Shown: positions 4,876 through 47,493, counted from the stretch's first letter. The stretch is DNA of 64,000 nucleotides from Candidatus Heimdallarchaeum aukensis (GCA_021513695.1 CP084166.1:1344001-1408000), one strand, 5' to 3'. The notes: generated by a model from the sequence alone, not told the origin. Program-made: numbers and translations.

Positions 4876-5563
4876 CTTCTTCTTTTTTTGATGATAAAAG
4901 GAGTGAACTTGACATCACAGCTCCCTCTTCAGATGAGGGTTTACAAAAACATATCTTATCTCCATCAGAGACAGCAATTAGTTTCTTTTCAGATGTCATC
5001 TTTGAAAGCACTTCCAATTCTATGGAACTCAATAACTTTTCGAGTTCACTTTTTCTCATTTCTTTATTCAACAATTTTTCTTCTACTTGTTTTTCTAAAC
5101 TCATAAGATCACCATAAGTTAATATTTCAGACTCAAGCTTTTTGTCTCGTCTTATATCCCAGAAATCGTATTTTTCATCAATTTTGGGTTTAATTGTCAG
5201 TTTTTCTGGTTTCTCAAGTTGAAATATAGAATAGGGGGATGTCTTTTTTCCTATTACAGAAATTAAAGGAGTGGCATTTTTTCTTACAAAATTAGAAAAA
5301 GACTTTATCCTACTTTTACTTTTCAGAATGTTTTCTAAATTAAGTTCTTCTCTAAGTTCATGCATTAAAATATAGTCTTCATAAACCTCTGCATCCAATA
5401 TTTTTTCTCTGTTTTGCATTAGATATTGATAAATGTCAGAAGTTTGTTCTCTATCCTTTTCTGACTCTTCAACAGATAATGAAATCTTCTTTTTTAATAA
5501 TTTCTTGTATTTTTTTTCAATTTCAAAAAGTGTAAGCAAGAGAACATCATAGTCTTCTTCCAT
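4868..5563 (-). CDS. Kleisin (ScpA)-like candidate immediately downstream of smc
   Basis: 231 aa. Its start overlaps the smc stop at the single base 5563. It is charged and helical. There is no strong motif and the call is mainly by synteny. Confidence 0.3.
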   Translation of the reverse strand: MEEDYDVLLLTLFEIEKKYKKLLKKKISLSVEESEKDREQTSDIYQYLMQNREKILDAEVYEDYILMHELREELNLENILKSKSRIKSFSNFVRKNATPLISVIGKKTSPYSIFQLEKPEKLTIKPKIDEKYDFWDIRRDKKLESEILTYGDLMSLEKQVEEKLLNKEMRKSELEKLLSSIELEVLSKMTSEKKLIAVSDGDKICFCKPSSEEGAVMSSSLLLSSKKEEDE

Positions 5564-10661: not shown

Positions 10662-11279
10662 TTGATTTAACTTTTTCTTTGATTCAAAATATGATTGATA
10701 GATTTCATTTAGGCCTGTAGCAACAAGTAAAGTTTCTAGTTTTTTATGTGGAGAACCTTCAGCAAAAGCGTTTAAATATCCTTCTTCTGTGAAATTTAAC
10801 ATCGTATCTTCAAATATTCCTATTTGTTTCATGAGTGCTTGGATTTGTCTCTTTGTTACTATTCTTGAGCTTCCATCCAATGCCTTTATTTTCCTTACAG
10901 ATTGATTTTTTTTAATTTCAAGCTCCACAATAAAAGAATCCCTATTATTTACAAAAAGTTCAATATCTGGATCAGAAGATTGAAAAGGTCTCCTTTCACC
11001 CAACAAAGGGTTTGAAATGAAAAGTTGAATAACGGCAGAATCTCCAAAAGAACCAATTAATTCTTCTTTCTTACCGAGAGCTACTCTTGTGGGTGTATGC
11101 CCAATTACTAAAATTAAAGCTTCTAAAATTTGGCTTTTCCCGCTCCCATTAGCACCAGAAATGACAATTAACGGTTTTTCCATTAAATCTAATTCAGTAT
11201 ACTTATGCATTTTGAAATTTTTAATTACCAGTTTGTTGAAAACATACTTATTAGAACTTTCTGAATCAATAATTGTCAT
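10635..11279 (-). pseudogene. Truncated duplicate of the smc 5' end. The N-terminal 205 aa including Walker A are followed by 9 junction-derived residues (LNLQRTLQ) and a stop
   Basis: The first 205 aa are identical to SMC (5563..8541). The reading frame crosses the duplication junction at 10661/10662 and terminates. Confidence 0.55.
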
Positions 11280-26257: not shown

Positions 26258-28228
26258 TTGTTCCGAGAACTAAATGTTCAAAAAATTGCAGAACAACTAA
26301 CAATTGTCCCAGAAGAGATTAAAGAATACATACGCTTTCTTATTCAAAGCATGGTTTTGAGAGGTTTTTATAAAAAAGAAACATTTTATGTAAATGCTTT
26401 TTATTTGTGGCCATTTGTTGAATCAGTAAATTTTAATGAAAGTCAGTATATAATTATGGGGTTATTGTCTTCGAGAAGAGTTATGCCTTTTACAGATGTA
26501 GCTAATTTTTTAAAAATAACTAAAGAGCAATTAATAGCACAACTAGAGACTTTAATTTATCATGGAGTTGTAATTTGTTACATTAAAAGAAATAAAATAA
26601 TTACTGACTGGCTATGGAGACCACCAGATGAAATTAAAGTCTCTGAACAAGATGTTCATATAATTGGAACTGCAATGATGCTTAGAAAAGCTAAAATCAA
26701 AGATATTGCTAAATTTTTAAAATATTCTGAAGAAGAAGTTGTCCAGAAAATTTCTAAATTGCTACTTTTTAGAAAGGTAGAAGCTGAATTTATCCTTAAA
26801 ACTAAATTTTTTGCTAAAGATACCATATCAATTATTGTTAGAAAATTCATTATTCAACCAGAAAAGAAAGAACTGAGCTTACTTCCAGTAAACGAAAAGG
26901 AAATCATAGGATTTCTTTTATTAACAAAAAAAGCGAAGTTAAAATCGATAAGCCGATTTATAGAAAAACCAATTAATGAAACAGTAAAACTACTAGCTTC
27001 ATTAACAGCAAAAGGAACATTTCAATTCATTTTTTCATCAAAGAAAACAGTTAGCCCCGTTATAATACCAGATATAAAACCTAAAAGAACTATTGAAGAA
27101 ATGGCTTCATTATCTTTCTTTAACTATGAAGCATTGTTAGGTATGTTAACTACAAGAAAGAGGATAAAAGTCAAGAAACTCTCTTTTTGGATGAATAGAG
27201 AAGACGACGAAATAATCGAGGCATTAATTAACTTATATTTGGAAGGATTCATTTCATGTACTTTGGTAAAGAAGGTAGTATATATTGAAGGGATATATCA
27301 ATATAGTAGAACACAAGAGGGAAGTTTAGAACGGTGGGAAAAAATAATTCTAGGAATGGTTATAGCTAAAACCATAATCTCTGTAAAAGATATTAGTAAA
27401 TCATTTGGTACTGATAAACTTATAGCACGTGAAAAACTGTATTCTTTTTATGGAAAGGGTCTAATAAAAGGAGAACTACATGATTTTAGAATTAATACAA
27501 AATTAATTCCAGAGGAAATTCCTGTGTTTCCTCCTTTGAATCAAATCGAAGATTTTCCAATTCACTATCAAGAAATTTTTGGATATATTATTTCAAATAT
27601 TACTGTAAACGTTTCAAAAATGGCTAAAATATGGAACAAAAGCAAAAACGCGATTAAAAATATTATTTATGAATTAACAGGGGCTGGTGTAATTAATGTC
27701 ATACAAAATCGTAACGTCTTTATTCTACAATCAGCTCAAAAATATTATCCAACACAAGAAATAAACGCTTTAGGACATGAATATGTTCAGATTATAAATG
27801 AAATTGAAAAAAGCAGGAGAAGAAGAGTAAGAATTGAGCACATTCAAAAACGAGTAAACATCCCTCAGATCGATATTTTCAAGATTATTTGTCAATTATT
27901 AGCTCATGGCTACTATAGAGGAACAATTTCTGAAAAAGTTTTTATTAGAAAAGGAAAGCTTATTGTTCCTGTTGGCAAACTCAAATGCTATTACTGCGGA
28001 CATACTATAGAAGACAGTCACCTATCATGTCCAAATTGTTCAAAGGCACAACCATTGTGTATCATCTGTAACGGGTTAATAAAAAGAGGACAAGAAGTTC
28101 TAGAATGTCCCAATTGTGAAAATGTTGGACATAAAGAACATATGCGAAAATGGATTTCTATAAAGGAAGAATGCCCAATTTGTAAAACTCAAATATCAAA
28201 GAGAAATCTAATAGAAAAAGTAGCGTAA
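26258..28228 (+). CDS. Multi-winged-helix protein (about 8 tandem ~60-70 aa WH-like repeats) with a C-terminal zinc ribbon plus a RING-like cross-brace candidate
   Basis: Recurrent units are visible, for example IYHGVVICYIKRNKIITDWLW, LLLFRKVEAEFILKTKFFAKD, LTAKGTFQFIFSSKKT, YLEGFISCTLVKKVVYIEG, YGKGLIKGELHDFRIN, TGAGVINVIQNRNVFILQ and LLAHGYYRGTISEKVFIRKG. The C-terminus is CYYC...CPNC...CIIC-x11-CPNC-x4-H-x2-H-x10-CPIC. Confidence 0.45.
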   Translation: MFRELNVQKIAEQLTIVPEEIKEYIRFLIQSMVLRGFYKKETFYVNAFYLWPFVESVNFNESQYIIMGLLSSRRVMPFTDVANFLKITKEQLIAQLETLIYHGVVICYIKRNKIITDWLWRPPDEIKVSEQDVHIIGTAMMLRKAKIKDIAKFLKYSEEEVVQKISKLLLFRKVEAEFILKTKFFAKDTISIIVRKFIIQPEKKELSLLPVNEKEIIGFLLLTKKAKLKSISRFIEKPINETVKLLASLTAKGTFQFIFSSKKTVSPVIIPDIKPKRTIEEMASLSFFNYEALLGMLTTRKRIKVKKLSFWMNREDDEIIEALINLYLEGFISCTLVKKVVYIEGIYQYSRTQEGSLERWEKIILGMVIAKTIISVKDISKSFGTDKLIAREKLYSFYGKGLIKGELHDFRINTKLIPEEIPVFPPLNQIEDFPIHYQEIFGYIISNITVNVSKMAKIWNKSKNAIKNIIYELTGAGVINVIQNRNVFILQSAQKYYPTQEINALGHEYVQIINEIEKSRRRRVRIEHIQKRVNIPQIDIFKIICQLLAHGYYRGTISEKVFIRKGKLIVPVGKLKCYYCGHTIEDSHLSCPNCSKAQPLCIICNGLIKRGQEVLECPNCENVGHKEHMRKWISIKEECPICKTQISKRNLIEKVA

Positions 28229-29600: not shown

Positions 29601-31381
29601 TTGCCAAGAAAACAAAATAAAAATAAAAAAATCGATCATGTTTTACAAAGCAGTGACAAACTATTGGATTTTATCACCTCTGAAATATTAAATGCTACAG
29701 AAAAAATTTATGCATGTTTTCCACCAGGAGAAAGATTAGGAAAACTTTTTGAGTTTAAGCAAGAAACTTTTTTCACTGTTTTTAAGAAGAATTTTCTACC
29801 TATAAAAGAAACCTTAATGAAAGATATTAACAACATCCCAAAAGAAAAGACAAATAAATTACTAATTGTAGGAAACCTATTTTTTGAGTTAAATGATTTA
29901 GATTCAGCAATTAAAATATATGAAAGAATAGTCAAATTAGATGAAACAAATATTTATGCTTGGAGTAACTTATTAACAATTTATCTTGAAAAAAATAAAA
30001 ACAAAAAGGCTCTAGAATGCTATATCCATATTCCACCAAATTTTATGCAAAGCACCATTTATGAGAAGATGAACAGAAAACTTGATGCTTATAGGATATT
30101 GAATATTTCCTCTTTAATCTCATATGAAGAAAAAATTTTTTCAATATCAAATGCAGAAACCATGCCTGAAGAACAAAGAGTAGAGTATGAAAACAAGTTA
30201 AGAGAACTCTACTCAGATATTGAATTTGCTAAAGGTCAAGAAGCATTAGCAAATGGGGAAATTGACGAAGCATTAATTTACTTTACAGGGTTAACAAGAA
30301 AGTATCCTAAAAGCGACATCTTGTTTTATATTTTAGGAAAAACAGCTCTTGATGGTAAACATTACGTAATATCAGAAGAGTACTTAAAAAAAGCAATAAA
30401 GATAGCGAACAATGTTCCTGATTATTGGGTTGCTTTATCAAGATGTTTTTTTGAACAACATAAAAATGAGCAAGCAGTTAAAGCTTTAAAAACAGCATTA
30501 ACACTTAATCCTTCAAATTCAGAGGCATGGGAACTAGCTGGAAAAATGGTTAAAATTTTAGAAGCTCTCAATGAGTATAATTATCTAATTAATAAGTTAA
30601 AAACTATTTCCACAAACACTGCGTATTCTTTATTTGCTAATGAACTTATTGCTTCCAAGAAATACTCTTCAGCTTTGGAAATATTACAATACGGAACAGA
30701 AAAATTTCCTGATGATGTCAGTCTCCTTGAGAAACTTGCTTTGGTTTACGAAAGGATGATGAAATTTGACGAAGCAATCACCATTTACGAAAAACTTATT
30801 CGAGTAGGAAGTAATAGTCAAAAATATCTGAGGAAAATAACCTCAATTCTCACAATATTACATGATGACACACGTTTAGTAAAGATCCTAAAAATGGTAT
30901 CAGCTTATATTCCAATAAATGAACCTGCATTGTGGGATAAAATTGGAAATATTTTACTTAAAGCAAAAGATTATTTTGGAGCGAGCGAAGCTTTTCGCAA
31001 AGTAATTTCTTTTAATCAAAATGACCCTAAAGTTTTATTTAATCTGGCCTTAACATATCAAGAGCTCTCACTTTACAAAAAAGCAGAAGAAACATATAAA
31101 AAAGTAATAGAGTTAAATCCACACGATCACGCAGCCCTAAACAATTTAGGAAATGTACTAAAAGAACAAAAAAGTACGATGAAGCAATAGAATGCTATAA
31201 GAAAGCAGTTCAGATTGAGCCCGATAAAGCGATTTCATTTGCAAATCTTGGAATCCTTTATGAAGAACTAAGATTAAAGAATGAAGCCAAAGAATGTTAT
31301 AGAAAAGCGAAAGAAATTGCTCTAAAGAACAAAGATTATGATTCAGCAGCAAAGTTTGAAGAATGGGAAAATTCAGTGTAA
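29601..31381 (+). pseudogene. TPR-repeat protein gene interrupted by a -1 frameshift in an A-run near 31166-31172. The ORF track ends at 31190 and the TPR reading frame continues to about 31381
   Basis: The 529 aa ORF ends ...LGNVLKEQKSTMKQ*. Reading the +1 frame from there gives KYDEAIECYKKAVQIEPDKAISFANLGILYEELRLKNEAKECYRKAKEIAL..., which is a canonical TPR continuation. One extra A in gaacaaaaaag would restore ...KEQKKYDEAIE.... Confidence 0.6.
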
Positions 31382-31927
31382 ATGTTATTGATAAAAATGG
31401 AAAAGAAAAAAGAATGGGCTATTGCTCAAGAAAAAATTACAGGATATATCCAAAAGCTTGGTTTTGATGTTTGGAAAGAAAGAAAAATAAACAACAAACG
31501 TGTTGATATTCTCGCTAAAAAAGTTTCAAGAGAGAAGATTACTTATCTAGTTTTTGAAATCAAACACTATAATAGAGTACATGCACATAATGAAAGAGAG
31601 TTTTTTGTACAAATTCAAGATTATGTGAAAGAATTATTACTCCGTGAAGTAGCCCGTAAATCAGCAAAAAAAGTATTAAGAGATTATATGTTCATTGGAT
31701 ACCTTGTTTTCACAAATGATTTTGGTTTATTTAAAAATAGAAAAAAAGATTGGAAAAGAAATTTTTTTCATCAAAGTGAAAAAGTTCTTAGAGAAATTTG
31801 GAGAAAGAAAGTTTCTTTTTTTTATTCTACTCCAGAATTTATTAAAAGAAATTTAGTAAGTTTGGGATTAGATTTAGATAAACAGTTAACATTAAACCAA
31901 CTTTTTAATTGTGAAGAAAACAAATAA
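31382..31927 (+). CDS. PD-(D/E)xK nuclease-fold protein, Hjc/Holliday-junction-resolvase-like
   Basis: EWAIAQEKITGYIQKLGFDV...KRVDILAKK...YLVFEIKHY follows the E...D...E-x-K pattern of archaeal Hjc-type nucleases. It is 181 aa, which is longer than canonical Hjc. Confidence 0.35.
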   Translation: MLLIKMEKKKEWAIAQEKITGYIQKLGFDVWKERKINNKRVDILAKKVSREKITYLVFEIKHYNRVHAHNEREFFVQIQDYVKELLLREVARKSAKKVLRDYMFIGYLVFTNDFGLFKNRKKDWKRNFFHQSEKVLREIWRKKVSFFYSTPEFIKRNLVSLGLDLDKQLTLNQLFNCEENK

Positions 31928-31963: not shown

Positions 31964-32893
31964 ATGAGTAAACTCGAAGATAGTATTAAAGAACATCTGG
32001 TAGCAATTCATATATTAGATGATGGAATTAATGTACACTCAGAACAGCTCCATAGTATTAGTAATATCGATAATGTATTGTTATTTGGCTTTTTAACGGC
32101 ATTATATAATTACACTTTTGCTATAGGACAAGAAAAAATATTAAACATAGATTTAGAGCAATATAAGATTATTTTTCAAGAATTAAAAGATAACAAATTA
32201 TTAGTAGTCATTACAGATTCTCTTATCGACTATGATGATGAAAAGAATCTTATCGAAAAAATCAAACTTAGGTATGAAGTTCTTACTTATGATAAAGATA
32301 TAAGCGAAATTGATTCTTTACTTACAGTAGAAGAAGGAATAATTCCTTTAGAACTTATAGCTGAAATAAGAAGTAAGGGGACTATGTACGCGAAGCAAGA
32401 AGAAAAAAGCAAAGCAGAAATCCAAGCAGAGATAGATATTCCAAAAATAAAATCAGAAAAATTCTTTTTCCATATCATTTTGAATGAAGGAATTATCGAT
32501 TCGGATAAAGAAGTAAATATCAGAAAAACTTTATCTAATTTTTTTCTAGGTTACCGAAAATTGGTTTTATGTATATTTGCGTATAATATTAGAGGAAAAC
32601 TTTGTATTTTTTCCTTTGGTAGAAGTTCTCAAGCAGATAATCATAGAGAGTTCAGCACGCACATCATTAACGAAACTTTAGCCAAAGCCGTGAAGAAAGA
32701 ATGTAGTATCATAAATCAGATTGAATATGGTGGAAAGAAATTTTGGGCAAATATATTTCTTGATCAGAAGAAACATTCGAGCTATGTTTTTCTCTCAACT
32801 TCTAAAAATGAATTAGTAAGTTTAGAAGTTCATATAAAAAGAATATCTACTTTTATTTATAAATTGTTTCAAAAAAAGTTAGTAGATGCTTGA
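31964..32893 (+). CDS. Protein with two roadblock/longin-like halves. Function unknown
   Basis: VAIHILDDGINVHSEQLHSISNIDNVLLFGFLTALYNYTFAIGQEKILNIDLEQYKIIFQELKDNKLLVVITD has a roadblock/LC7-like beta-alpha-beta pattern. A second similar unit is KLVLCIFAYNIRGKLCIFSFGRSSQADNH.... Confidence 0.35.
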   Translation: MSKLEDSIKEHLVAIHILDDGINVHSEQLHSISNIDNVLLFGFLTALYNYTFAIGQEKILNIDLEQYKIIFQELKDNKLLVVITDSLIDYDDEKNLIEKIKLRYEVLTYDKDISEIDSLLTVEEGIIPLELIAEIRSKGTMYAKQEEKSKAEIQAEIDIPKIKSEKFFFHIILNEGIIDSDKEVNIRKTLSNFFLGYRKLVLCIFAYNIRGKLCIFSFGRSSQADNHREFSTHIINETLAKAVKKECSIINQIEYGGKKFWANIFLDQKKHSSYVFLSTSKNELVSLEVHIKRISTFIYKLFQKKLVDA

Positions 32894-33003
32894 AAACAGA
32901 TATTTAATAAAATTGCAATTTCAGTTTGTCACACAAATCCCACAAAGTTAAAAAAGAAAAAGATTGAAATAACAGTTATAGAATTAATGTACGAGGAATA
33001 TTT

Positions 33004-33387
33004 ATGAGTATCTCTGGTCGAGAAATGGAAAAATTGCTACAAGAGTTTTCTGACAATACAGAAGGAGTTTTAGGCTGTTCTATCATCCTTGCAAAAGATG
33101 CTTTAATGTTAGCTGAAATCTCTCAGAAATATGATAGTATGGTAATTCAATGGCTAAGTGAACGTATTTTATCTATGGCAAAAGAATCACTTAAGCAGTT
33201 AATGAACGATTACCAATTACAAAGCGTAACTATTGAAGAAGAAAATCATCTAATTTTTCTGAGACCAGTAGGAACAGAATATTATCTCGTTTTTATTCTA
33301 AATAAGGAAGAAAATAGAGGTTTAATTGAATATAATATAAAAAGACTTCAAAAGAAGTTTAGTAAAGCATTAGGAATACAAGAATAA
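33004..33387 (+). CDS. Roadblock/LC7 (MglB-like) domain protein
   Basis: 127 aa. GVLGCSIILAKDALMLAEI...QLQSVTIEEENHLIFLRPVGTEYYLVFILNKEENRG is the typical roadblock pattern. Confidence 0.55.
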   Translation: MSISGREMEKLLQEFSDNTEGVLGCSIILAKDALMLAEISQKYDSMVIQWLSERILSMAKESLKQLMNDYQLQSVTIEEENHLIFLRPVGTEYYLVFILNKEENRGLIEYNIKRLQKKFSKALGIQE

Positions 33388-33406
33388 AAAAATTAAGAGG
33401 ATTGTA

Positions 33407-33781
33407 ATGAATATCACAACACTAAAGATACTTTCTAAGATAGCAAAAGATAAAAGAAATTTGAAATTTAGTTTTATCTCTCCTGAAACAAAAGAAATAC
33501 TTTGTACAGCTGCAACATTAGAAGAGCTCTATCAGTGCATTTTAAACTTGGACCCTGAAATCATTAAGCATCATGTTTCTTTAGCTGAAGAATCTCCAGA
33601 AGAGACTAGAGATCTTGCTTTTTGGATACAATATATTCTTGCAGATTCAGACCTTTCTATGAAAATATACACAGCTGCTAAACGATTTAAAGATGACCCA
33701 GAAAAACTGAAGTTAGAATTAATAAATCTCTTATTTACCAGGCTGCTTAATATATCAGAGATTTCTTCTATTCCAGAATAA
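33407..33781 (+). CDS. Small helical hypothetical protein in the roadblock cluster
   Basis: 124 aa with no recognised motif. It is tightly spaced, starting 20 nt after the preceding gene. Confidence 0.35.
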   Translation: MNITTLKILSKIAKDKRNLKFSFISPETKEILCTAATLEELYQCILNLDPEIIKHHVSLAEESPEETRDLAFWIQYILADSDLSMKIYTAAKRFKDDPEKLKLELINLLFTRLLNISEISSIPE

Positions 33782-33846
33782 TTATTTTTCTTCAATCAAT
33801 ATATTTTTGAAATATTTCTTTGACAGTTAGTCAATAGCAAAAGAAG

Positions 33847-35982
33847 ATGGTGTTTGAAATTAGTATTACATGTCCAAAATGTAAGGGAAAAGGAAAGATA
33901 CATAAAGAAAAGACTACATGTCCTGCTTGTTATGGTGTAGGAAAAACTTCTTTTTCCTTGAGTGGTAAAGGCGTAGAAGGAGATATTTGCAAAAAATGTA
34001 AAGGGACTGGAAAAATCACAACTTATGAGAAATGTCCAGTATGTAACGGAAAAAGAACAGTATTCATATGTAAGAATTGTAAAAGTATAATGAAAGCTCC
34101 AAGTAGATCAGGATTATGTCCTGCTTGTGAAATACAAAAAAAGCCCATAGTTTACAAATTGCGCCCACCAATAGATTCACAACTTATTAGGAATGGTATG
34201 GTCTTTATAGGAAGAGTAGACCAGATCAAGAATTTTGGAGTTTTTGTTAAACTAGCTGAAGATGCTAAAGTTTTAATAAGAAAAGAAGATATGAGCGACG
34301 AATATGCTTGGGATTTAGGAGAGGAAGTCCAAGTCAAAATCAAAAATGTTAGCGATTCTGGCAAACTTTACGGTAAGTCCGTAAACATAAAAGATTACTC
34401 TCTGTTACCAATTAGAGGAAGAGTAAGAGCTGTCCAAATCAAAGATATAACACATGAAAGAGTGGGAGCATTTTTGTCATTTAAAGCTCAAGTTGTATCT
34501 ATTTTACAAACTTCTGGACCAACTAGATTTACTTTTGCAGATGCTACTGGTTCAATAAACGGTGCAGCATTTATAAAAGCAGGAGAAAGAGCTTTTCCTG
34601 AAATCGTTGAAGATATGGTCGTAGAATGTTTTGGAGAAGTAACAGAGTTTAGAGATTCATTACAGATCGAAATTCAAGACATTGAAGCTCTTGAAGAAGA
34701 AGAAACAAAGAAATTGTTAAATGAAATTGAAATTGCTTTGGATAAGAAAGCAACTCCAGCAAAATTAGATTTTTCTGTTAAATCAGAAATACTTACAAAA
34801 TTAAAACCAGATATTATTAAAGCAGCAAAAAGAATAAGAAAAGCAATTTTTACAGGGCAACCAATTTATATCAGACATCATGCAGATGCAGATGGTGTCG
34901 TAGCAGGTTTCTCGGTACAACAAGCTCTTATCCAGTTGATGGAAGAAGAAGGATATGATGCCGATACAATAAGAATTAGAATAAAAAGACTTCCTAACAA
35001 ACCACCATTTTATGATCCCATTGATGTTGTTAAGGATTTAGATTTTGCTTTAGCAGATAAAGAAAGATTTGGAGATAAACTGCCTTTAATTATTTGTTTA
35101 GATTTTGGTTCTTCATTAGAATCTATTCTTCCATATTTACAGATAAAAGCATTAGGTCTAGAAATAATTGTAGTAGACCATCATTTTCCTGATAAGAAAA
35201 TAAGAGAAATTGTCGATCTTCATATCAACCCTTATTTTGTAGGAGGAGGTTATGAGATTTCTGGGGGAATGTTAGGTTATGAACTTGCAAGATTCATACA
35301 CCCTACGATCATCACTGATTCGATGAAACATTTACCAGCCATTGCAGGACTTATGGATAGAGTTGAAGGAGACGAGATAAAAGAATATATTAAGTTAGCA
35401 AAGGAAAAGGGCTATTCAGAAGAAGACTTGAAGACAATAGGTATTGCTGTAGATTATGAATTATACCAATTAAAATTTAGTGAAGGAACAAATTTGATGA
35501 AAATTCTATTTGGAGTAGACACCGACATAGAATGGCATAAGCAAATGTACAAAATCTTGGGTGAAGAAGCGAAAAAGTTGATGGATAATACTCTAAAAAG
35601 TGTGCTTCCACATGTTAAACAAAAGACTCTAGAAAATGATGTCTTATTAACTCAAATTGATGTTGAACTTTTTTCACACAGATTTACATTTCCTAATCCA
35701 GGAAAAATTACAGGAATGGTTTTTGATCACTTTGTTGAGAACAATGAAGACAAGCCCGTAGTTACACTTGGTGAAGGTCCTGATTTTCTCATTTTACGTT
35801 CTAAAGGGTTAGCTATCAACTTTCCTGAAGTTGTAAAGTTGATGCAAGAGAAAATACCTGAAGCTGATGTTCAAGGAGGAGGACATGAAGTTGTGGGTTC
35901 ATTAAAATTCTATGAAGGAACAAGAGAGAAAGTGCTTAACTTTTTCATTAAATATTTGGCCAAATCCTCTCTTGCTCTTTAA
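33847..35982 (+). CDS. RecJ/Cdc45-like DHH-family nuclease carrying an N-terminal DnaJ-type CxxCxGxG zinc finger, a zinc ribbon and two OB folds
   Basis: The N-terminus has CPKCKGKGKI, CPACYGVGKT, CKKCKGTGKI and CPVCNGKRT (4 CxxCxGxG motifs), followed by CKNC...CPAC. An S1/OB-like segment is GMVFIGRVDQIKNFGVFVKL. DHH motifs are RHHADADG, CLDFGSS and VVDHHFPD. The DHHA1 motif is VQGGGHE. Confidence 0.7.
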   Translation: MVFEISITCPKCKGKGKIHKEKTTCPACYGVGKTSFSLSGKGVEGDICKKCKGTGKITTYEKCPVCNGKRTVFICKNCKSIMKAPSRSGLCPACEIQKKPIVYKLRPPIDSQLIRNGMVFIGRVDQIKNFGVFVKLAEDAKVLIRKEDMSDEYAWDLGEEVQVKIKNVSDSGKLYGKSVNIKDYSLLPIRGRVRAVQIKDITHERVGAFLSFKAQVVSILQTSGPTRFTFADATGSINGAAFIKAGERAFPEIVEDMVVECFGEVTEFRDSLQIEIQDIEALEEEETKKLLNEIEIALDKKATPAKLDFSVKSEILTKLKPDIIKAAKRIRKAIFTGQPIYIRHHADADGVVAGFSVQQALIQLMEEEGYDADTIRIRIKRLPNKPPFYDPIDVVKDLDFALADKERFGDKLPLIICLDFGSSLESILPYLQIKALGLEIIVVDHHFPDKKIREIVDLHINPYFVGGGYEISGGMLGYELARFIHPTIITDSMKHLPAIAGLMDRVEGDEIKEYIKLAKEKGYSEEDLKTIGIAVDYELYQLKFSEGTNLMKILFGVDTDIEWHKQMYKILGEEAKKLMDNTLKSVLPHVKQKTLENDVLLTQIDVELFSHRFTFPNPGKITGMVFDHFVENNEDKPVVTLGEGPDFLILRSKGLAINFPEVVKLMQEKIPEADVQGGGHEVVGSLKFYEGTREKVLNFFIKYLAKSSLAL

Positions 35983-38655: not shown

Positions 38656-41484
38656 GTGATTGCAATCAAAAAAATTTCTTGTACTATTATTCTTGTTTTA
38701 TTATTAAGTTCAGAGGTATATGGGACAATATATAACAATCAAGCAGAACAAGAAGAAAATAAAGAAAAAATGGATTTTACTAATCTTAAAAACATATTTA
38801 AAGAAAAGCAATTGTTAGAAGAATTCAATAAAGCACCAAGAAATCAAGATTTCAGGTTATTTATCAAACCAAGAAATTATGATTCAAGAATAATTTTACT
38901 TGATAAAGGTAGAAGAGCAAATCCAATTTCAATAGTTAATGGACTTTTTGCAACATATACTAAAGCAGAATTATTAAATTTAATTAATAGAGGTTTAATA
39001 TTTTCTGTCTGGAATAATAGTCAGATCATGATAGCAGATTCTGAAATAAATGTATCATCCTCACTTGTTCAAAACACTGCTAACTTCACAGAAATGATAA
39101 ATACAACAACATTATGGAAAAATAATATTAAAGGAGATAATGTCACAGTAGCTATTCTTGACACGGGGATATTGAAAAATCACCCTGCATTAAACACAAC
39201 ACAAGATGGAAAAAATAGAATTATCGCAACAAGGAATTTTTTTGATGAAGATTCGTATCCAACTGACAACAATGGACATGGTTCAGCATTAGCAGGAATT
39301 ATTGGGAGTAATGGTCTTTTTGGCTATCCTATAGGCGTTTCTCCCAATTGTAATTTCATAATAGGTAAAATCTTGACTAACGAAGGTCAAGGTACATTAG
39401 AAACTTTGCTTTCTGGGATGGATTGGGCAATTAGCCAAGGAGCGGACATTATCAACCTCTCAATAGGAAAAAAAGTTGAAAGCCTTCATGCTCCAGAAAT
39501 AGAAGCAGTAAATAATGCAGTAAATAAAGGTGTAATTGTAGTTAGCGCTGTTGGTAATTCAAGAGGTAAATTAGAATTTGGATATAACTCTAAATACACA
39601 GTTCTTAGCCCTGGAATAGCTAGCAATGTAATAACTGTTGGTGCAATTGATACAAATGAAGTTTTATACGAATTTAGTAGTGGAGGGCCAGTGACTATCA
39701 ATTTTAACGAAACTGAAGGAAAATATCTCTATGATTTCCAAGATGTGGATTACTGGATAAAACCTGATATTGTAGCTCCTGGAGTTAAAATTAATACAAC
39801 AACAAATTCTTTAGATTCAACAAAAATAGTAACAGGTACTAGTTATTCCACTGCTGTAGTATCAGGATTATGTGCGCTAGTTTTATCAAAAAACAAGGAA
39901 TATAAGCCATCAATAATAAAATCAGCAATTTTGAATAGCGCAACGAAATTAGAAAACAACCTAATATTTAGCTCTAATTCAACTATTAAAATAATCCCTG
40001 ATATTTTTTATCAAGGTGCAGGATTAGTTAATGCGGGTCATACTTTAGATGAATTAGAAAACATTCAAGATTTCACAATATGGCCTGCAGATTTTTCATT
40101 TTTAGATAAAAAATTATTCATTAACGAAAAAAAGCAGTTCTATATTAGTTTATTCATAAATAGACCCATTGAACATCTAACAATAAACATTGAGGGAGAT
40201 ATAAATAAAGGATTAACAATAAGCAATTTAGACACTTTAAACTCTAGTTCTATAGGACAATATAACCTTGCTTTTTTGATTGATGGTGAGAAATTTTCTT
40301 CAGGAATTCATAAAGGGGAAATAACCTTTGTCTCATCCGTATTAAACATAACCTTATCTCTACAAATAAATATCATTAATGCAAAAGGAAAGGTTTTAGT
40401 AGACTTTTTTGAGAAAAGTCCTATTGATTATTATTCATTAAAAGGGACTTTAACTAGCCTAGTAAGGACTTTACGAAAATTACAATTAGTTACTTCTTTT
40501 CTTAGAAGAGATATTGAGCAAAGAACATTATCTAGTCTAAACCTTTTAGACTATGATTTAATTATCTTAATCAATCCTAATGGATCTACAGAATTAAGAG
40601 ATTATTACTCAAATAGTGATTTAGAAGCTCTAAAAGACTATGTGCTACCTAGAGGAAATTATAAAGGAGGAAGTCTTTTAATTTTACCTTCACAATCAAG
40701 TGACTTCAATTTTATAGCTAACTTAACAAGTTTATTCAAAATCTCTCTTAGTCAAACAGAAATCGAAGAAGAATTTTTTGAATTTGGTTTCACGACTGGT
40801 CAGTTATTTTCATTTCCCAATGAAATAAGTGAGTTTTATATTCCAAAACCATTCATTGTAAAAGGAGAAAATAGTTCAGTAAAAAATTATGAAAACCGCT
40901 TTGCTTATGTAGATAACAGATATGGTGGAGGTTCACTCGTTTTTGTAGCTAATAACGTTGATATGTTTCTCTCATCTCCATACTTATACTCAACTACTAG
41001 TGAAAAATATATTACAACTCGATTTTCTTCAAAATACGGAAACAATACAAAACTCCTTGAAAACATAGTTTATACATGTAGACCTAATTACATACTGACA
41101 TCCGTTGAAACGGATAAAAAGGAATTCATAAAGAATGAAAAAATAACGTTAAAAATTTCTCTTAAAAATTATCACAAATATATTTCAGGATGGACTTTTA
41201 CTATTACTTTGGAAAATGAACAGACTTACATGGTTCCTTCATTCCAATACGTTGATCTTGAAAATGGTTCATATTTCTTGATTATAGATATAGAAAAGAA
41301 TAATATTAAACCTGGTCATTACTCTTTAGTTGTAAGGTCTTTTGCAGGAAATGAAAAAATTGAGGTAAACATTATAACTAACTTCTCTCTTACTCCAAGA
41401 TTCGTTGAAATTCCTCTCATTGTATGCGTTATTATAATTATATATACCCAAACCAAAAAAAGAAGAGTGAAGATTAAGAAATAG
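38656..41484 (+). CDS. Secreted subtilisin-like serine protease (peptidase S8) with a long C-terminal extension and a TM anchor
   Basis: The catalytic triad context is VAILDTGI (Asp), HGSALAGIIG (His) and GTSYSTAVVSG (Ser). It has a signal peptide and the C-terminal anchor IPLIVCVIIIIY followed by KKRRVKIKK. Confidence 0.85.
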   Translation: MIAIKKISCTIILVLLLSSEVYGTIYNNQAEQEENKEKMDFTNLKNIFKEKQLLEEFNKAPRNQDFRLFIKPRNYDSRIILLDKGRRANPISIVNGLFATYTKAELLNLINRGLIFSVWNNSQIMIADSEINVSSSLVQNTANFTEMINTTTLWKNNIKGDNVTVAILDTGILKNHPALNTTQDGKNRIIATRNFFDEDSYPTDNNGHGSALAGIIGSNGLFGYPIGVSPNCNFIIGKILTNEGQGTLETLLSGMDWAISQGADIINLSIGKKVESLHAPEIEAVNNAVNKGVIVVSAVGNSRGKLEFGYNSKYTVLSPGIASNVITVGAIDTNEVLYEFSSGGPVTINFNETEGKYLYDFQDVDYWIKPDIVAPGVKINTTTNSLDSTKIVTGTSYSTAVVSGLCALVLSKNKEYKPSIIKSAILNSATKLENNLIFSSNSTIKIIPDIFYQGAGLVNAGHTLDELENIQDFTIWPADFSFLDKKLFINEKKQFYISLFINRPIEHLTINIEGDINKGLTISNLDTLNSSSIGQYNLAFLIDGEKFSSGIHKGEITFVSSVLNITLSLQINIINAKGKVLVDFFEKSPIDYYSLKGTLTSLVRTLRKLQLVTSFLRRDIEQRTLSSLNLLDYDLIILINPNGSTELRDYYSNSDLEALKDYVLPRGNYKGGSLLILPSQSSDFNFIANLTSLFKISLSQTEIEEEFFEFGFTTGQLFSFPNEISEFYIPKPFIVKGENSSVKNYENRFAYVDNRYGGGSLVFVANNVDMFLSSPYLYSTTSEKYITTRFSSKYGNNTKLLENIVYTCRPNYILTSVETDKKEFIKNEKITLKISLKNYHKYISGWTFTITLENEQTYMVPSFQYVDLENGSYFLIIDIEKNNIKPGHYSLVVRSFAGNEKIEVNIITNFSLTPRFVEIPLIVCVIIIIYTQTKKRRVKIKK

Positions 41485-41854
41485 CGTTTCTTATATCAGA
41501 AGCATATCTTGCTAGAACTTGCATGGATAATGCAAGACTGTAGATTTCTCTTGAAGCTGCTAAAGTTATTACTTCTCCAGTATTTTGGAGTATGACAAAA
41601 CCCTCTCTTCCTTTTATAATAACTTGGTCTAATTCTCCATACTTTAATTGGGTGACAGTTTGCATTCCTGCAGCATTCAAAGCAGAAGCTAAAGCTGCCA
41701 TAATAACTGAATCAGTTCCTTGTTCTGCAAAAAAAGCTAATTCTTGTCCTTCTGAGGTTACTACTGCTATAGCACCAAGATCACATTTCTTTGTTATCTG
41801 TTTAAGTATCTGAATTACTGCTTTTTTTTGTTCGGGTGTTAAATCTGTAATCAT
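41474..41854 (-). CDS. Roadblock/LC7 (MglB-like) domain protein
   Basis: 126 aa. LGAIAVVTSEGQELAFFAE...LDQVIIKGREGFVILQNTGEVITLAAS is the roadblock pattern. Confidence 0.55.
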   Translation of the reverse strand: MITDLTPEQKKAVIQILKQITKKCDLGAIAVVTSEGQELAFFAEQGTDSVIMAALASALNAAGMQTVTQLKYGELDQVIIKGREGFVILQNTGEVITLAASREIYSLALSMQVLARYASDIRNAIS

Positions 41855-41931: not shown

Positions 41932-42591
41932 CTAAAAAATACGAGAACTATGGGTATTACAGACAGGCGTAAATACATCTTCCACAATTCCATTATGTTC
42001 ATACTTCCAATTGTTTAGAAACTTTGCTTCTTTTCCACAGATATAACATTTTCTTGGCCTGTCAAGTGGTTTTCTAATCCTTGATTTTCTATTCCAATAA
42101 ACTTGAAATTCTTCTACTTTCTTTGTAAATTTATCTAACATTTTCTGTGCATTTTCTGATTCATTTGGTTTCACACCGGTAGTAAAAACAATCCAGCTCC
42201 ATACAACGATTGTTAAGATATTTTTGAAAGATTTAATTGGAATCTTTGTAAAACCACTGATCATTATTTCCCTATATGTATCATGAACTCTGAAGTCAAG
42301 CCTTACTTCTTTTTTGGTATATTGATCACCAAAATCTAAATCATATTTTTCTTTAATTCGGATTAGTCTTTTACCAATTTCAGAAAACAACCAATCAACA
42401 GTATTCCAGCTTCCTTTTCTTTTTAATTCCAAGAACTTTATTCTAACATTTGGGTAAGATATCGAAATAAACAGTTCATTTACAGCACTGTTAGCCTTTC
42501 TTACCAAGTATTCGTAAATTCCTACCGGGAATTCTAGTGATTTTTCTAGGTGCACTGGAATCACTCTAGAATTAGAACACGTTTTTTTCAC
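41932..42591 (-). CDS. Hypothetical protein with a C-terminal CxxC...C-x2-H zinc-binding tail
   Basis: 219 aa with no recognised catalytic motif. The tail is KCYICGKEAK...PVCNTHSS. Confidence 0.35.
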   Translation of the reverse strand: MKKTCSNSRVIPVHLEKSLEFPVGIYEYLVRKANSAVNELFISISYPNVRIKFLELKRKGSWNTVDWLFSEIGKRLIRIKEKYDLDFGDQYTKKEVRLDFRVHDTYREIMISGFTKIPIKSFKNILTIVVWSWIVFTTGVKPNESENAQKMLDKFTKKVEEFQVYWNRKSRIRKPLDRPRKCYICGKEAKFLNNWKYEHNGIVEDVFTPVCNTHSSRIF

Positions 42592-42701: not shown

Positions 42702-44861
42702 TTGAATGAAGAAAACCTAGATTTTTGTCCTAATTGTGGAAAGATACTTGTAATAAAAAATAACAAAGCTTTTTGTTCCAAATGCAGAATTAGAATCAAA
42801 ATTAGCTCAACAAACTCAGATAATGTGACAATAGAACAAGACAGTTTTAGTAATTATCAAAAAAGAAGGGAACAAAAAAAGAAAGACAGAAAGTTAAAAG
42901 ACCTCAAAAAAGACATAACAGGACAGAGTTTACAAGAATGGGAGAAATTTTTTCCATATGAAACTATTAGAGCACAACAAAAGACGATTATATCAAGTAT
43001 CTCTAATGCCATTAATGAAAAAAAGCACATACTTATTCAAGCTGTAAATGGAGTAGGAAAAACAATTTCACTACTTACTGGAGTTTTACCTACTGCTAAA
43101 AAACAAAAAAAAGTTGTTATATATACTTGCAGAACACACGAACAGATGGACAGAGTTGCTGAAGAATTAAAGAATATCCGCTTATTTCAAAAAATAAGTG
43201 CTATCACTTTAAGAGGAAGAAAAGAATTATGTCCAAATAAACTTATCCAAAAATTTGCAGTTGATGCAAAAAATACTGCTGAAATTTGTGCTCAATTAAA
43301 AAAAGAAGGTAAATGCAAATTTTTTAATAATCTCTCAAATAGCGCCTTAATTTCTAAACTTATAAAAGATCTTGAAGTAAGTGTATTAGACAGCACAGAC
43401 TTATGGGAAATAGGTGAAACATTCGAAATATGTCCCTATGAAATAAGTAAAAAATTATTGCTAAAAGCTGATGTAGTTGCAACTAGCTATCAATATATAT
43501 TTAATCCCTTTATCTTCAACACGTTTCTTTCTCACTTAGAAAAAAATTTTGATGATATAATCCTTATAATTGATGAAGCCCACAATTTACCCTCTACAGC
43601 AATTGAAATCAGTAGTGAAAGTTTATCTTCTATTGCTATAGAGAATGCTATGTCTGAAGCAGCAAAGGCAAGAGAAGGATTTCTATATGACTTTTTGGAA
43701 GCTTTAAATTTTGAGCTAGAGAGAAGATCAAAGGAACTAAGACCAGAAGTGGATTTACCCTACAACCCAATTGATTTGCTTGAAAAAGTAAGAAAAAGAT
43801 CAAGGATTAGATGTGATGAAACGGTAATAGAATCATTAGAATTACTTGCTGACAAAATAAAAGAAGAGAAACTGAAAAGGAACAAAGCTCCTTTATCTTC
43901 AGCATCTTCTGTAGCACGTTTCCTTGGACACTTATTAGACTCAATTGATAAAGATGAATATGCTCAATTTATTTCAGTTATAGAAGGAAGAAGGAGAGAT
44001 CGCATCCCTACATTTACAACTTTAGCTTTAGACCCTAGAGTTATCACAAAAAGAATCCTTCAAAACGTTTATTTCACTATTTCCGCGTCTGGTACTCTAG
44101 AACCAATTGAATCGTATCAATCCTTAATTGGTGTTGAAAAAAAGGGATCTGAAGTTTTAATTCTTGATTCTCCTTATACGACCGAAAATATTCAATCTCT
44201 TGTGATTAATGGAGTTTCTACAAAGTTAAGTTTTAGAACCCCTGAAAATTTTAAGAAAATGAATGAGATAATTGAAGCAGTAGTAAATGCCACACCTAAA
44301 AATATAGGTATATTTTGTGCTTCATATAAGGTTCTAGAAAGCCTTCTTGAAAATGGATTAGAAGAGAGAATATCCAAACCCTTGTTCATCACATACCAAG
44401 GCATGAGTTCTAGAGACAGTTTCAGCGTAATTAATTCATTTAAAGATGAAGGAAAGTTTGAAGGAGGAGTCTTACTTTCTGTATTAGGTGGGAGAAGTTC
44501 TGAAGGTTCTGATTATCCTGCTGAAATGATGCAAAGTGTGATTATTGTAGGTATTCCTTTTGCTAAACCTAACGCTAAAATTGAAGCTTCAATTCAGTAT
44601 TTAGAAAAACAATTTCCTGGAAAAGGAAGAGAATATGGGTATACCATACCAGCAATGACCAGAGCAGCACAAGCGGCCGGAAGGCCTATTAGGAGTTTAA
44701 AAGATATCGCTTCAATAATTTTAATGGATTATCGATTTGGCATAGACTATTATAGAAAGCATCTTCCATCATGGATTACAGGAAATATTAGAATAGTTCC
44801 TGCAGATAAAGACATTGTAGAAGAAAGAGTAAAAGAATTCTTTGATTACCACTTCAAATAA
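42702..44861 (+). CDS. xpd: XPD/Rad3-family 5'-3' DNA helicase (FeS-cluster helicase) with an N-terminal zinc ribbon
   Basis: The zinc ribbon is CPNCGK...CSKC. Motif I is AVNGVGKT. DEAHNL is the DEAH box. The four FeS cysteines are LCPN, GKCKFF and ICPYE. Length is 719 aa. Confidence 0.85.
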   Translation: MNEENLDFCPNCGKILVIKNNKAFCSKCRIRIKISSTNSDNVTIEQDSFSNYQKRREQKKKDRKLKDLKKDITGQSLQEWEKFFPYETIRAQQKTIISSISNAINEKKHILIQAVNGVGKTISLLTGVLPTAKKQKKVVIYTCRTHEQMDRVAEELKNIRLFQKISAITLRGRKELCPNKLIQKFAVDAKNTAEICAQLKKEGKCKFFNNLSNSALISKLIKDLEVSVLDSTDLWEIGETFEICPYEISKKLLLKADVVATSYQYIFNPFIFNTFLSHLEKNFDDIILIIDEAHNLPSTAIEISSESLSSIAIENAMSEAAKAREGFLYDFLEALNFELERRSKELRPEVDLPYNPIDLLEKVRKRSRIRCDETVIESLELLADKIKEEKLKRNKAPLSSASSVARFLGHLLDSIDKDEYAQFISVIEGRRRDRIPTFTTLALDPRVITKRILQNVYFTISASGTLEPIESYQSLIGVEKKGSEVLILDSPYTTENIQSLVINGVSTKLSFRTPENFKKMNEIIEAVVNATPKNIGIFCASYKVLESLLENGLEERISKPLFITYQGMSSRDSFSVINSFKDEGKFEGGVLLSVLGGRSSEGSDYPAEMMQSVIIVGIPFAKPNAKIEASIQYLEKQFPGKGREYGYTIPAMTRAAQAAGRPIRSLKDIASIILMDYRFGIDYYRKHLPSWITGNIRIVPADKDIVEERVKEFFDYHFK

Positions 44862-44901: not shown

Positions 44902-45360
44902 ATGAAAGCAATTTTTGAAATTAAAAATAAATCAGAGAAACAAGTTCTTTTGGATTTAGAAGAGCTTTCTGAAAAATATAACAGTTCTGTAAAAAAGGAA
45001 GATCAAGGAGAAGGACACTTTATTCTTACAGAATCAAAACTTCAAATTGTAGAAAGAGTTGAAGGTGATCAAATAATAGTTCAAGTCTGGGGAGCTTCAG
45101 AAGGAGACATTCAAGAGCTTTCAAATTACTGGGGACAACCAAAAAAGCTGATAAAAGAAAAACCATCACCTAACGATTTAGCTAAAGAGATAATATATAT
45201 TCCAAATATAACTGAAATGAAGAAAAATGAGTTGTTAGAATTGTTAGAAATAAGTGAGAAAGACTTGGATAAATATAAAAGATTAATTGACAGATTAGCA
45301 CAAAGAAAAAACGTAAGCGATGAATTAAAGAAAGCAAATGAGATACTAAAAAAATTCTAA
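44902..45360 (+). CDS. Hypothetical acidic protein
   Basis: 152 aa with no motif. It starts 40 nt after the xpd stop. Confidence 0.3.
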   Translation: MKAIFEIKNKSEKQVLLDLEELSEKYNSSVKKEDQGEGHFILTESKLQIVERVEGDQIIVQVWGASEGDIQELSNYWGQPKKLIKEKPSPNDLAKEIIYIPNITEMKKNELLELLEISEKDLDKYKRLIDRLAQRKNVSDELKKANEILKKF

Positions 45361-45423: not shown

Positions 45424-47493
45424 TTGTCTATTATGGGCAAGAAAATATTTTCAATAATAATTGTTCTTTTACTGGTAATACCTTTTTCCAGTTTAAGTAA
45501 TATTTCAAATTCTCAAGCAGAAAATAAAACAGTAAAAAGTTATTTTGAGCAAGCAATAACAACTACTACATTTAAAGGAGAAACAAATATTACAACTTTA
45601 ATAGGACCTGATTATGCCTATGATGTTATTATTAACTCATTAAAACGAGCTCAAACTTCATTTTATTTAGAAGTTTATACTTTATCCAGCGAACCACTTG
45701 TAAATGAGCTCATTAGAGCAAAAGAAAGAGGAGTAGAAGTAATTGTTTTACTTTCTCACGATAGAGTAAGCGGATATGAAGATGAGTATACTAAAGAAGC
45801 TGCTTACAGATTAGATAATGCAGGAATTGACGTATTATGGACAAGCAGCGAATTCCGTTTTACTCATGCCAAATTCTGGATAGTTGACAGTGAAACAGTC
45901 TTTGTTTATTCTGGAAATTGGGCTCCATCTAGTATCCCACAATATCCTTCAGCTTATAAAAATAGAGAAATGGGTTTTGCAATTACTGATACTGAAATTG
46001 CAGCCTACTATGAAGATGTATTTTTCGATGATATGGCTGCATCAACACCCTATGATCCTTCTATTGGTCATACAGGAAATCTTCAAGCAAATTCAACTAG
46101 CGGATCATATGAACATCCTTTTAATTCTGCCATTTTTATCGAATATGCAGAAGTTACACCTATTTTCTCTCCTGATAACAGTTATGCGCTTCTCTCATCA
46201 CTAATCAAATCAGCCAATGTATCAATTGATATAGAAATGCAATATATTCTATTTGACTGTGAGCTTCTACAAGACATTATAGATGCATCACAAAGAGGTG
46301 TCGCAATAAGAGTAATAATTAACAAACCAGACTCATCAGGAGAAAATGTTACAGAAACTTTGCTTACTAATGGCATTCAAGTCAAATTTTTCAAAGGATT
46401 GAGTCATAACCATAACAAATATGTTAGCGTCGATGGAGAGATTGTACAAATTTCAAGTATTAATTGGTCTAACAACTCACTTACCAATAATAGAGAAGCA
46501 GGAGCTATAATCAAAAATTCAAATGTAGCAGAATATTTCAAGCAAATTTTTGATTATGATTGGAATAAAGGTGAAACACCAGAAGGTTTTGCAGTTCCAG
46601 TTGCATTAATTGATCCTCTCCCAGGAGGGATAGTTAAAGGTACATATGATTTCAAAGCTTCTTTCTCAGTTTATAATTATTCTTCCGCAGAACTTCAGAT
46701 TGATGGTTCTACAGCTCATTCTTGGACGAATCCCGAAAACATTGAAACAGTATCAATAGATACATCATCTTATTCAGACGGAATTCACACTGTAAAGATT
46801 ATAGCTACAAAAGATGACGATAGTACAGTTGAAATAGAAGAGAAAATCAATATTATCAACGTAGACGAATGGTTATTATTAATTAGCGAAGTAAGATATG
46901 ATGCAGTTTCTGAACCAGGTGGAGAATTTGTAGAGTTATACAATGCCTTTGATTTTTCTCTATACTTGCAAAATTGGAAATTTACAGATAATGAAGGAGA
47001 ATATAAAATGTCTGAAGGCACTATGATTACTTCTGGACAAGTTTTAATTTTCGCAAGTGATAGCAGTGCTTTTGTTTCCGAAATGGCAGACTTAGGAATT
47101 TCTGGTGTATCTGCAGATTTTGGGCTAGGAGATATATCTCTTGCTAATACAGGAGATGAAATTTTACTAGTGTCTCCAGATGGTGAGGTAAGAGATGCTG
47201 TTTCATGGGGATCAGGAAGTGCTTCTGGAGTCATTGCATGGAGTGGTTCAACAGGAGAGGATAAAACTCTTCAGAGAGTACCAGCCAATGAAGATACTGA
47301 TGATTGTACAAATGATTTTCAGGCTAAAGCCCCTACTCCAGGAGAAGTAGATTTAGATTCAATAAATACAGAAACAGGAGCAAACACAGACGACACAGAG
47401 CCAGAATTTACAAGTTTCAATTTCCTATACGTCATTTTTGGTATAATTTCTCTAACTGCTTTAAGTAGTATTTTTAAAAGAATAAGAAAATAG
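45424..47493 (+). CDS. Secreted phospholipase D-superfamily protein (two HKD motifs) fused to a C-terminal lamin-tail domain and a TM anchor
   Basis: The HKD motifs are FTHAKFWIVD and HNHNKYVSVD. The LTD-like segment is ISEVRYDAVSEPGGEFVELYN...GDEILLVSPDGEVRDAVSWG. Signal peptide present. C-terminal anchor FNFLYVIFGIISLTALSSIFKRIRK. Confidence 0.75.
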   Translation: MSIMGKKIFSIIIVLLLVIPFSSLSNISNSQAENKTVKSYFEQAITTTTFKGETNITTLIGPDYAYDVIINSLKRAQTSFYLEVYTLSSEPLVNELIRAKERGVEVIVLLSHDRVSGYEDEYTKEAAYRLDNAGIDVLWTSSEFRFTHAKFWIVDSETVFVYSGNWAPSSIPQYPSAYKNREMGFAITDTEIAAYYEDVFFDDMAASTPYDPSIGHTGNLQANSTSGSYEHPFNSAIFIEYAEVTPIFSPDNSYALLSSLIKSANVSIDIEMQYILFDCELLQDIIDASQRGVAIRVIINKPDSSGENVTETLLTNGIQVKFFKGLSHNHNKYVSVDGEIVQISSINWSNNSLTNNREAGAIIKNSNVAEYFKQIFDYDWNKGETPEGFAVPVALIDPLPGGIVKGTYDFKASFSVYNYSSAELQIDGSTAHSWTNPENIETVSIDTSSYSDGIHTVKIIATKDDDSTVEIEEKINIINVDEWLLLISEVRYDAVSEPGGEFVELYNAFDFSLYLQNWKFTDNEGEYKMSEGTMITSGQVLIFASDSSAFVSEMADLGISGVSADFGLGDISLANTGDEILLVSPDGEVRDAVSWGSGSASGVIAWSGSTGEDKTLQRVPANEDTDDCTNDFQAKAPTPGEVDLDSINTETGANTDDTEPEFTSFNFLYVIFGIISLTALSSIFKRIRK

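Follow-up and report, generated by a model that had tools for sequence, protein, structure and literature searches.

HAN (Hef-associated nuclease) is a Mn2+-dependent 3'->5' single-strand exonuclease of DNA repair whose canonical architecture comprises a DnaJ zinc finger, an S1-like domain, an OB fold and a DHH/DHHA1 nuclease domain (Feng et al. 2018, PMC6158738). Roadblock and longin domains form edge-to-edge dimers and act as platforms, GTPase-activating proteins (GAPs) or guanine nucleotide exchange factors (GEFs) for small GTPases (PMC3747258, PMC10933270). Genes for proteins assigned to these two groups lie next to each other in Candidatus Heimdallarchaeum aukensis, within a stretch of 64,000 nucleotides (GCA_021513695.1, CP084166.1:1344001-1408000) that was analysed as a whole and is called the window below. 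The best explanation of this locus, with a probability of about 0.6, is that a HAN gene and a separate trio of Heimdallarchaeaceae-specific genes stand side by side, the trio coding for what would be a GTPase-regulating platform unrelated to HAN. The four genes were defined by calling of open reading frames (ORFs), and those of the trio are named after the length of their products in amino acids (aa):

31964-32893, + strand: p309, protein of 309 aa
33004-33387, + strand: p127, protein of 127 aa
33407-33781, + strand: p124, protein of 124 aa
33847-35982, + strand: HAN, protein of 711 aa

Their coordinates, sizes and common direction are exactly those given in a preliminary description, which had been made from the sequence alone. 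The G+C content of the window is approximately 30%, so that ORF length by itself is weak proof of a gene. The four ORFs are genuine genes under purifying selection: comparison with the 94%-identical locus of Ca. Heimdallarchaeum endolithica yields ratios of non-synonymous to synonymous substitution rates (dN/dS) of 0.08 for p309, 0.07 for p127, 0.05 for p124 and 0.04 for HAN. The gene order is repeated in more than 15 independent contigs, at protein identities of 37-94%. The host belongs to the Asgard archaeal family Heimdallarchaeaceae, since its nearest relative is Ca. H. endolithica (94% identity for the large protein) and genes identical to those of the window are present in independent public assemblies.

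The 711-aa protein is almost certainly a HAN orthologue. Its residues 101-707 align with positions 1-604 of the 612 of the NCBIfam profile HAN_nuclease (NF053577; 587 bits, E = 4e-176), while the next best DHH model, the GAN-type RecJ_archaeal (NF053576), reaches only 42 bits (cut-off 360) and is limited to residues 328-486. These scores rule out a GAN/Cdc45-type RecJ identity and replace the RecJ/GAN/Cdc45-like label under which the protein had been described. Residues 292-706 match PDB chain 5yh1_A (377 bits, E = 1.8e-111), which is the nuclease domain of P. furiosus HAN solved by Feng et al. 2018 (PMC6158738). The following parts of the protein can be delimited:

33871-34053, + strand: DnaJ-type cysteine-rich zinc finger, residues 9-69 (PF00684)
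34069-34128, + strand: extra CxxC...CxxC zinc-ribbon-like pair, residues 75-94 (motif scan)
34192-34689, + strand: S1-like domain (residues 116-170) and OB fold (residues 212-281) (Pfam)
34720-35964, + strand: DHH/DHHA1 nuclease domain, residues 292-706 (5yh1_A alignment, motif scan, Pfam DHH)

In Pfam searches the OB fold (tRNA_anti-codon, residues 212-281) scores 33 bits (cut-off 27) and the DHH domain (residues 340-481) 30.6 bits (cut-off 28.1), and S1 (residues 116-170) reaches 21.7 bits (cut-off 22). The two OB folds that had been noticed earlier correspond to the S1-like and OB domains, and the earlier assignment of a DHH/DHHA1 nuclease stands, with Pfam DHH above its cut-off and a motif scan finding the catalytic motifs HADAD (residue 345), DHH (444) and the DHHA1 motif GGGH (677) intact. 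By homology, the protein would be a Mn2+-dependent, probably trimeric 3'-exonuclease engaged in DNA damage repair, HAN being an enzyme that binds Hef and has ssDNA and ssRNA as its substrates. It resembles HAN of Thermococcales and Haloferax (PfuHAN, TkoHAN, HvoHAN) by its domain order, its full-length match to the HAN profile and the presence of DHH and GGGH. It differs from them by the extra CxxC...CxxC pair that follows the four DnaJ-type motifs and by its Asgard host, HAN having been described in 2018 as common only in Euryarchaeota (PMC6158738). The DHH-superfamily nuclease fold is common to the 711-aa protein and to GAN, the archaeal RecJ/Cdc45 protein. GAN, however, lacks the zinc finger at the N-terminus and the S1 and OB domains, while the 711-aa protein has no CMG-interaction domain and is not a member of the GAN group. 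A scan of the genome collection for further HAN loci returned one locus.

The zinc finger is an inherited feature of the HAN family that has already been published. Pfam DnaJ_CXXCXGXG (PF00684) matches residues 9-69 with 34.4 bits (cut-off 32.7; profile positions 1-64 of 65), and the motifs start at residues 9, 25, 48 and 63. Three of the four are strict CxxCxGxG motifs; the last is CPVCNGKR (CxxCxGxR). The preliminary description was thus right about the DnaJ finger but counted one strict motif too many. The further zinc ribbon that it mentioned is found as the pair CKNC (residue 75) and CPAC (residue 91), which has a weak match to DUF7129. Its view that such a finger is unusual on this nuclease does not hold: the finger is the N-terminal domain of published HAN (PMC6158738), and among the best 120 HAN orthologues all 87 proteins of at least 680 aa carry 3-5 CxxCxG motifs, exactly four in 84 of them. 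Cysteine motifs common to the orthologues were what that description itself had named as evidence against its view. In the 32 orthologues of 600-679 aa, mostly from Methanomicrobiales, the motifs are absent from all but one. Finger-bearing orthologues span Heimdallarchaeia, Hodarchaeales, Methanosarcinales and Methanobacteriales, and precomputed PF00684 matches are listed for orthologues of Hodarchaeales, 'Hermodarchaeota', Methanosarcinaceae, Methanolobus, Methanococcoides and Methanobacterium. The published architecture and this census rule out the finger as an innovation.

The folds of the three trio proteins are very probably assigned correctly. The p127 protein is a divergent single-domain roadblock/LC7-like protein, on weak but consistent signals of homology. 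The assignment is made because the profile of its family (6 orthologues) matches two Asgard roadblock proteins of solved structure over their full length, namely 9jue_D (E = 3.6e-4; residues 10-123 aligned with residues 17-129 of the chain) and 7f8m_A (E = 0.007). The mean column identity of p127 across the loci is 81%. Its match to Pfam Robl_LC7 (PF03259; profile positions 3-88 of 91) attains 19.6 bits, below the cut-off of 23, and four of six family members match this profile, all below threshold. The roadblock/LC7 label given earlier to the 127-aa protein is therefore borne out by homology, but not at the Pfam gathering threshold. No significant sequence similarity was detected that would make p127 a paralogue of p309 or of a second roadblock gene present downstream in the window.

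The p309 protein is a tandem longin/roadblock-fold protein, as supported at the fold level only. Its AlphaFold2 model, built with 12 orthologues (predicted local distance difference test, pLDDT, 71.8), features two alpha/beta/alpha sandwich domains, with the five-stranded sheet of the longin/roadblock superfold, separated by a disordered linker in which a strongly conserved IPLELIAEIR helix is found:

31964-32284, + strand: p309 N-domain, residues 1-107 (AlphaFold2 model)
32462-32887, + strand: p309 C-domain, residues 167-308 (AlphaFold2 model)

Foldseek searches with p309 place Mon1 and Fuzzy at the top (E = 2e-7 to 1e-4), in alignments spanning both domains. The earlier description of p309 as a two-roadblock-like protein is consequently upheld by the model and the fold searches, but not by sequence. 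Membership in Fuz_longin_1 is rejected, as this profile matched one of 12 family members (E = 0.074) and not the p309 protein of the window. No significant sequence similarity that would indicate an internal duplication was found within p309. It also has no detectable sequence similarity to the families of the roadblock/LC7 platforms (MglB, LAMTOR2/3, the Rag C-terminal domains and Asgard Roadblock 1-3, namely 9jue, 7yh1 and 7f8m). It differs from them in that a single chain holds two domains with a conserved linker between them, and by an additional N-terminal strand in its second domain; p127 departs from the same group by its score below the Pfam cut-off.

The p124 protein, previously regarded as merely helical, is predicted by AlphaFold2 to contain a beta-hairpin and helices. 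It scores above the Pfam cut-off of DUF5752 and its fold matches OrfY of Thermoproteus tenax (PDB 4cso). OrfY and the 208-position DUF5752 profile hold the module in tandem, while p124 is a single copy of the module that is duplicated in OrfY. The orfY gene belongs to the treT trehalose operon, a setting that the window lacks. A literature search found no papers on DUF5752 or on OrfY of T. tenax.

The trio (p309, p127, p124) is, as judged from sequence searches, confined to Heimdallarchaeaceae. Word-indexed searching gave 13 p309 clusters and 8 p124 clusters. An exhaustive search of 1.84 billion representatives with a p309 hidden Markov model yielded 16 matches at E <= 1e-3, of which 8 are full-length (E <= 1e-30). 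The distant matches are few Asgard proteins of approximately 290 aa, and some small ones that score around the Pfam cut-off of Fuz_longin_1.

The cluster extends upstream of position 31964 to include two additional co-directional genes:

29601-31381, + strand: TPR-repeat gene, first of the co-directional cluster (Pfam TPR families)
31382-31927, + strand: 181-aa PD-(D/E)XK-like protein (PDDEXK_9 below cut-off, invariant motif)

The TPR ORF ends in the window at 31190 because of a run of six A at 31167 (31160-31175). An independent assembly of the same organism (L025) and Ca. H. endolithica have seven A at this position, and this is the sole difference in 4.3 kb between the window and L025. The intact gene codes for 593 aa, ends at 31381 and abuts the ATG of the 181-aa gene. 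The six-A run is probably a homopolymer assembly error; it could also reflect phase variation. The 181-aa protein plausibly has a PD-(D/E)XK nuclease fold: PDDEXK_9 is matched by five of five family members, all below cut-off (20.2 against 25.5 bits; best E = 6e-4), and D42 and E59-x-K61 are invariant in the family alignment. The dN/dS of its gene is 0.11, and a PDB sequence search with the family gave no meaningful match.

The neighbourhood was surveyed at 20 loci, with 16 proteins of the window as tblastn queries. About 20 kb are collinear throughout the family, in the consensus order XPD-p152 / TPR, 181-aa PD-(D/E)XK-like, p309, p127, p124, [HAN], followed by a predicted membrane protein of approximately 555 aa (no Pfam domain), a HAD hydrolase, an S8 peptidase, the second roadblock gene and p219. 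All three genes of the trio are intact at each locus that has sufficient sequence. HAN comes directly after it in the window and in L001, L002/L003, L008, L010, L013, L014, L017 and L018, and is cleanly missing in L006, L007 and L011, where the downstream genes are still collinear. The TPR gene precedes the trio in L001, L006, L007, L008, L013 and L014, and at most loci the 181-aa gene is kept there with it; L002 has the trio and HAN without the TPR or 181-aa genes. HAN genes of Hodarchaeales/'Hermodarchaeota', Methanococcoides and Methanosphaerula have unrelated neighbours and no trio. The trio is thus the only invariant unit among the loci compared, because HAN is absent from three of them, the TPR/181-aa pair is absent from L002 and HAN is found elsewhere without the trio; HAN and the TPR/181-aa pair often accompany the trio but can be missing. 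That the trio and HAN adjoin each other is best explained by a gene order conserved at the family level and not by an obligate functional unit, and an obligate coupling of the two is improbable.

Particular arrangements were seen at some HAN loci. In L008 (6695-8367) the HAN gene is split into ORFs of 259 and 241 aa and lacks the region corresponding to residues ~262-404 of the 711-aa protein; either this copy is decaying or the assembly is faulty there. In L019 (JABUBN010001373.1, 3137-7164) a DUF5752-like gene and HAN are on the strand opposite to p309/p127 and divergent from them, which is due either to rearrangement or to mis-assembly. Another conserved HAN neighbourhood is present in L004 (6113-7717) and L005 (6110-7744), from Hodarchaeales and 'Hermodarchaeota', where HAN is divergent from a conserved Metallophos (calcineurin-like phosphoesterase) gene of approximately 540 aa and is followed by a GNAT acetyltransferase.

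A function of the trio as a GTPase platform is proposed tentatively, by analogy. The roadblock/longin domains of p309 and p127 would associate along the edges of their beta-sheets, in the way known from MglB, Ragulator and Mon1-Ccz1, and the two proteins would form a three-domain platform. A small GTPase whose gene lies elsewhere in the genome would bind to this platform and be regulated by it, the platform being a GAP, a GEF or a scaffold. Adaptors would be provided by the OrfY-like p124 and perhaps by the TPR protein. In MglA-MglB the partner GTPase gene is adjacent, while none adjoins p309/p127. As stated in the preliminary description, no GTPase partner is visible: no protein with a P-loop and NKxD was found by motif scan among window ORFs of at least 100 aa nor by Pfam in 25 neighbouring ORFs, and the P-loop proteins of the window are SMC-like, ABC and XPD only. 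This absence carries little weight because Asgard archaea as a rule do not have their small-GTPase genes in one operon with roadblock, longin or TRAPPC3 genes (Tran et al. 2024, PMC10933270).

Several observations nevertheless weigh against this explanation of the locus or its parts. The HAN score of 587 bits is below the NCBI equivalog cut-off of 840, as might be expected for an Asgard sequence compared to a model that probably draws mainly on euryarchaeal sequences. The p309 model is of moderate confidence only (pLDDT 71.8, pTM 0.48), and p309 has no sequence-family assignment in Pfam or NCBIfam. No GTPase partner for the trio was identified in the 64 kb of the window. HAN follows the trio, co-directionally and with a spacer of ~65-75 bp, in about 10 of 13 informative loci, and a GGTG Shine-Dalgarno-like element precedes the HAN start in several loci. 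In L019 it is the DUF5752 gene that is kept beside HAN, and not beside the roadblock genes. Co-transcription and some functional coupling between the trio and HAN are therefore possible.

The alternative closest to these last observations is that the cluster from the TPR gene to HAN is one operon for nucleic-acid processing or repair, in which the roadblock/longin and OrfY-like proteins recruit or regulate HAN, and perhaps the PD-(D/E)XK nuclease, thereby replacing the Hef partnership known in Thermococcales. Both the operon and the replacement of Hef are considered unlikely. The six genes are co-directional, with spacers (inspected by eye, the TPR frame being restored) of 0, 36, 110, 19 and 65 bp, and GAGG Shine-Dalgarno-like elements precede p127 and p124. 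HAN is directly behind the trio at the loci listed above, DUF5752 and HAN are still neighbours in L019, the cluster includes a PD-(D/E)XK-like gene and has an XPD helicase nearby, and no Hef-like gene was found in the 64-kb window. Against this, L006, L007 and L011 have an intact trio from which HAN is cleanly gone, L002 dispenses with the TPR and PD-(D/E)XK genes, and HAN of Hodarchaeales and methanogens is surrounded by unrelated genes. Adjacency is hardly informative when ~20 kb are collinear family-wide. A T-run, terminator-like in archaea, is found at the start of the p124-HAN spacer, after the p124 stop, in every locus. To our knowledge there is no precedent of roadblock proteins regulating a DHH nuclease. 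The link between roadblock proteins and nuclease that the preliminary description implied is thus weak, the trio occurring without HAN at three loci and HAN without the trio outside Heimdallarchaeaceae in every lineage checked.

A less probable option still is that the trio is a module for small-molecule sensing or transcription regulation, whose longin/roadblock-like domains would be GAF-like ligand binders and whose OrfY-like protein would be the regulator. OrfY was entered as a 'transcription factor' by those who deposited 4cso (an unverified annotation only), and the lack of a GTPase gene in the window is in keeping with such a role. However, the sequence profile of p127 recovers bona fide roadblock proteins and Pfam scans found a DNA-binding domain in none of the three trio proteins.

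It is more doubtful again that p309, paired with p127, is related to the multi-longin RabGEF subunits of eukaryotes (Mon1/Fuzzy/HPS1 type) or, more speculatively, that such a complex controls the adjacent HAN. The resemblance of the p309 model to Mon1 and Fuzzy is a lead and not a test. The tri-longin RabGEF subunits (Mon1/Fuzzy/HPS1 and Ccz1/Inturned/HPS4) have three longin domains while p309 has two. They pair with a second tri-longin subunit while the likely partner of p309, p127, has a single domain. Fuz_longin_1 gives no match to the window protein, and tri-longin PDB chains would rank first for any tandem longin protein, so that the likeness is no proof of homology. No report of archaeal tri-longin-type proteins was found in the searchable literature.

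The possibility that the small ORFs are spurious or decaying frames of an AT-rich genome, clustered by chance, is suggested by the ease of obtaining long ORFs at ~30% G+C, the lack of a Pfam match of p309 and the frameshift of the adjoining TPR gene, but is ruled out, with next to no residual likelihood, by dN/dS values of 0.05-0.11 across all small genes and by homologues (37-94% identity) in the same order on more than 15 independent contigs, the AlphaFold2 models being confidently folded and the frameshift a single homopolymer difference missing from an independent assembly.

Other genes of the window are listed here with their neighbours. The second roadblock gene (41474-41854, - strand) has a Robl_LC7 match of 31.6 bits, above cut-off, and is paired with p219 (41932-42591, - strand), coding for a 219-aa protein with a C-terminal CxxC...C..H motif. 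The pair is kept in L001, L002, L006, L013 and L018. The p219 protein was considered as a GTPase and rejected, as it has no P-loop, no Pfam match and no PDB match. An XPD/Rad3-type helicase (DEAD_2, HBB, Helicase_C_2; 42702-44861, + strand) is followed by a conserved 152-aa protein (p152; 44902-45360, + strand). The XPD-p152 pair is divergent and just upstream of the TPR gene in L007, L013 and L014, a difference in position showing that the region was rearranged between genomes. Next is a 689-aa protein (45424-47493, + strand) with two PLD-like domains and a Lamin Tail Domain (LTD; 52 bits, above cut-off). On the other side of the cluster, a 992-aa SMC/Rad50-like ATPase (5563-8541, - strand) and a 214-aa ORF (10635-11279, - strand) have in common an N-terminal P-loop (GANGSGKS, at residue 42) and their Pfam matches; the 214-aa ORF seems to be either a second copy of the N-terminal part or a piece of a split gene. 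A 656-aa protein (26258-28228, + strand), which is kept in Ca. H. endolithica, has several weak winged-helix matches and a C-terminal RING-type finger (zf-RING_2, E = 2.5e-4, below cut-off); as a possible RING-like E3 it would be of interest in an Asgard genome. No structured-RNA match was returned by an Rfam search of the intergenic regions and no tRNA by a search of the 64-kb window.

The presence of HAN in an Asgard archaeon at most widens the documented range of this nuclease beyond Euryarchaeota. If p309-p127 were related to the multi-longin RabGEF subunits, the pair would be a simpler stage, in prokaryotes, of a platform for GTPase exchange that is otherwise known from eukaryotes alone, and control of HAN by such a platform would link small-GTPase-type regulation to DNA repair. 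The trio itself is a new, narrowly distributed addition to the known and greatly expanded roadblock/longin repertoire of Asgard archaea, and may become a useful case in which to trace multi-longin GEFs back before the eukaryotes if a GTPase partner and a p309-p127 complex are demonstrated.

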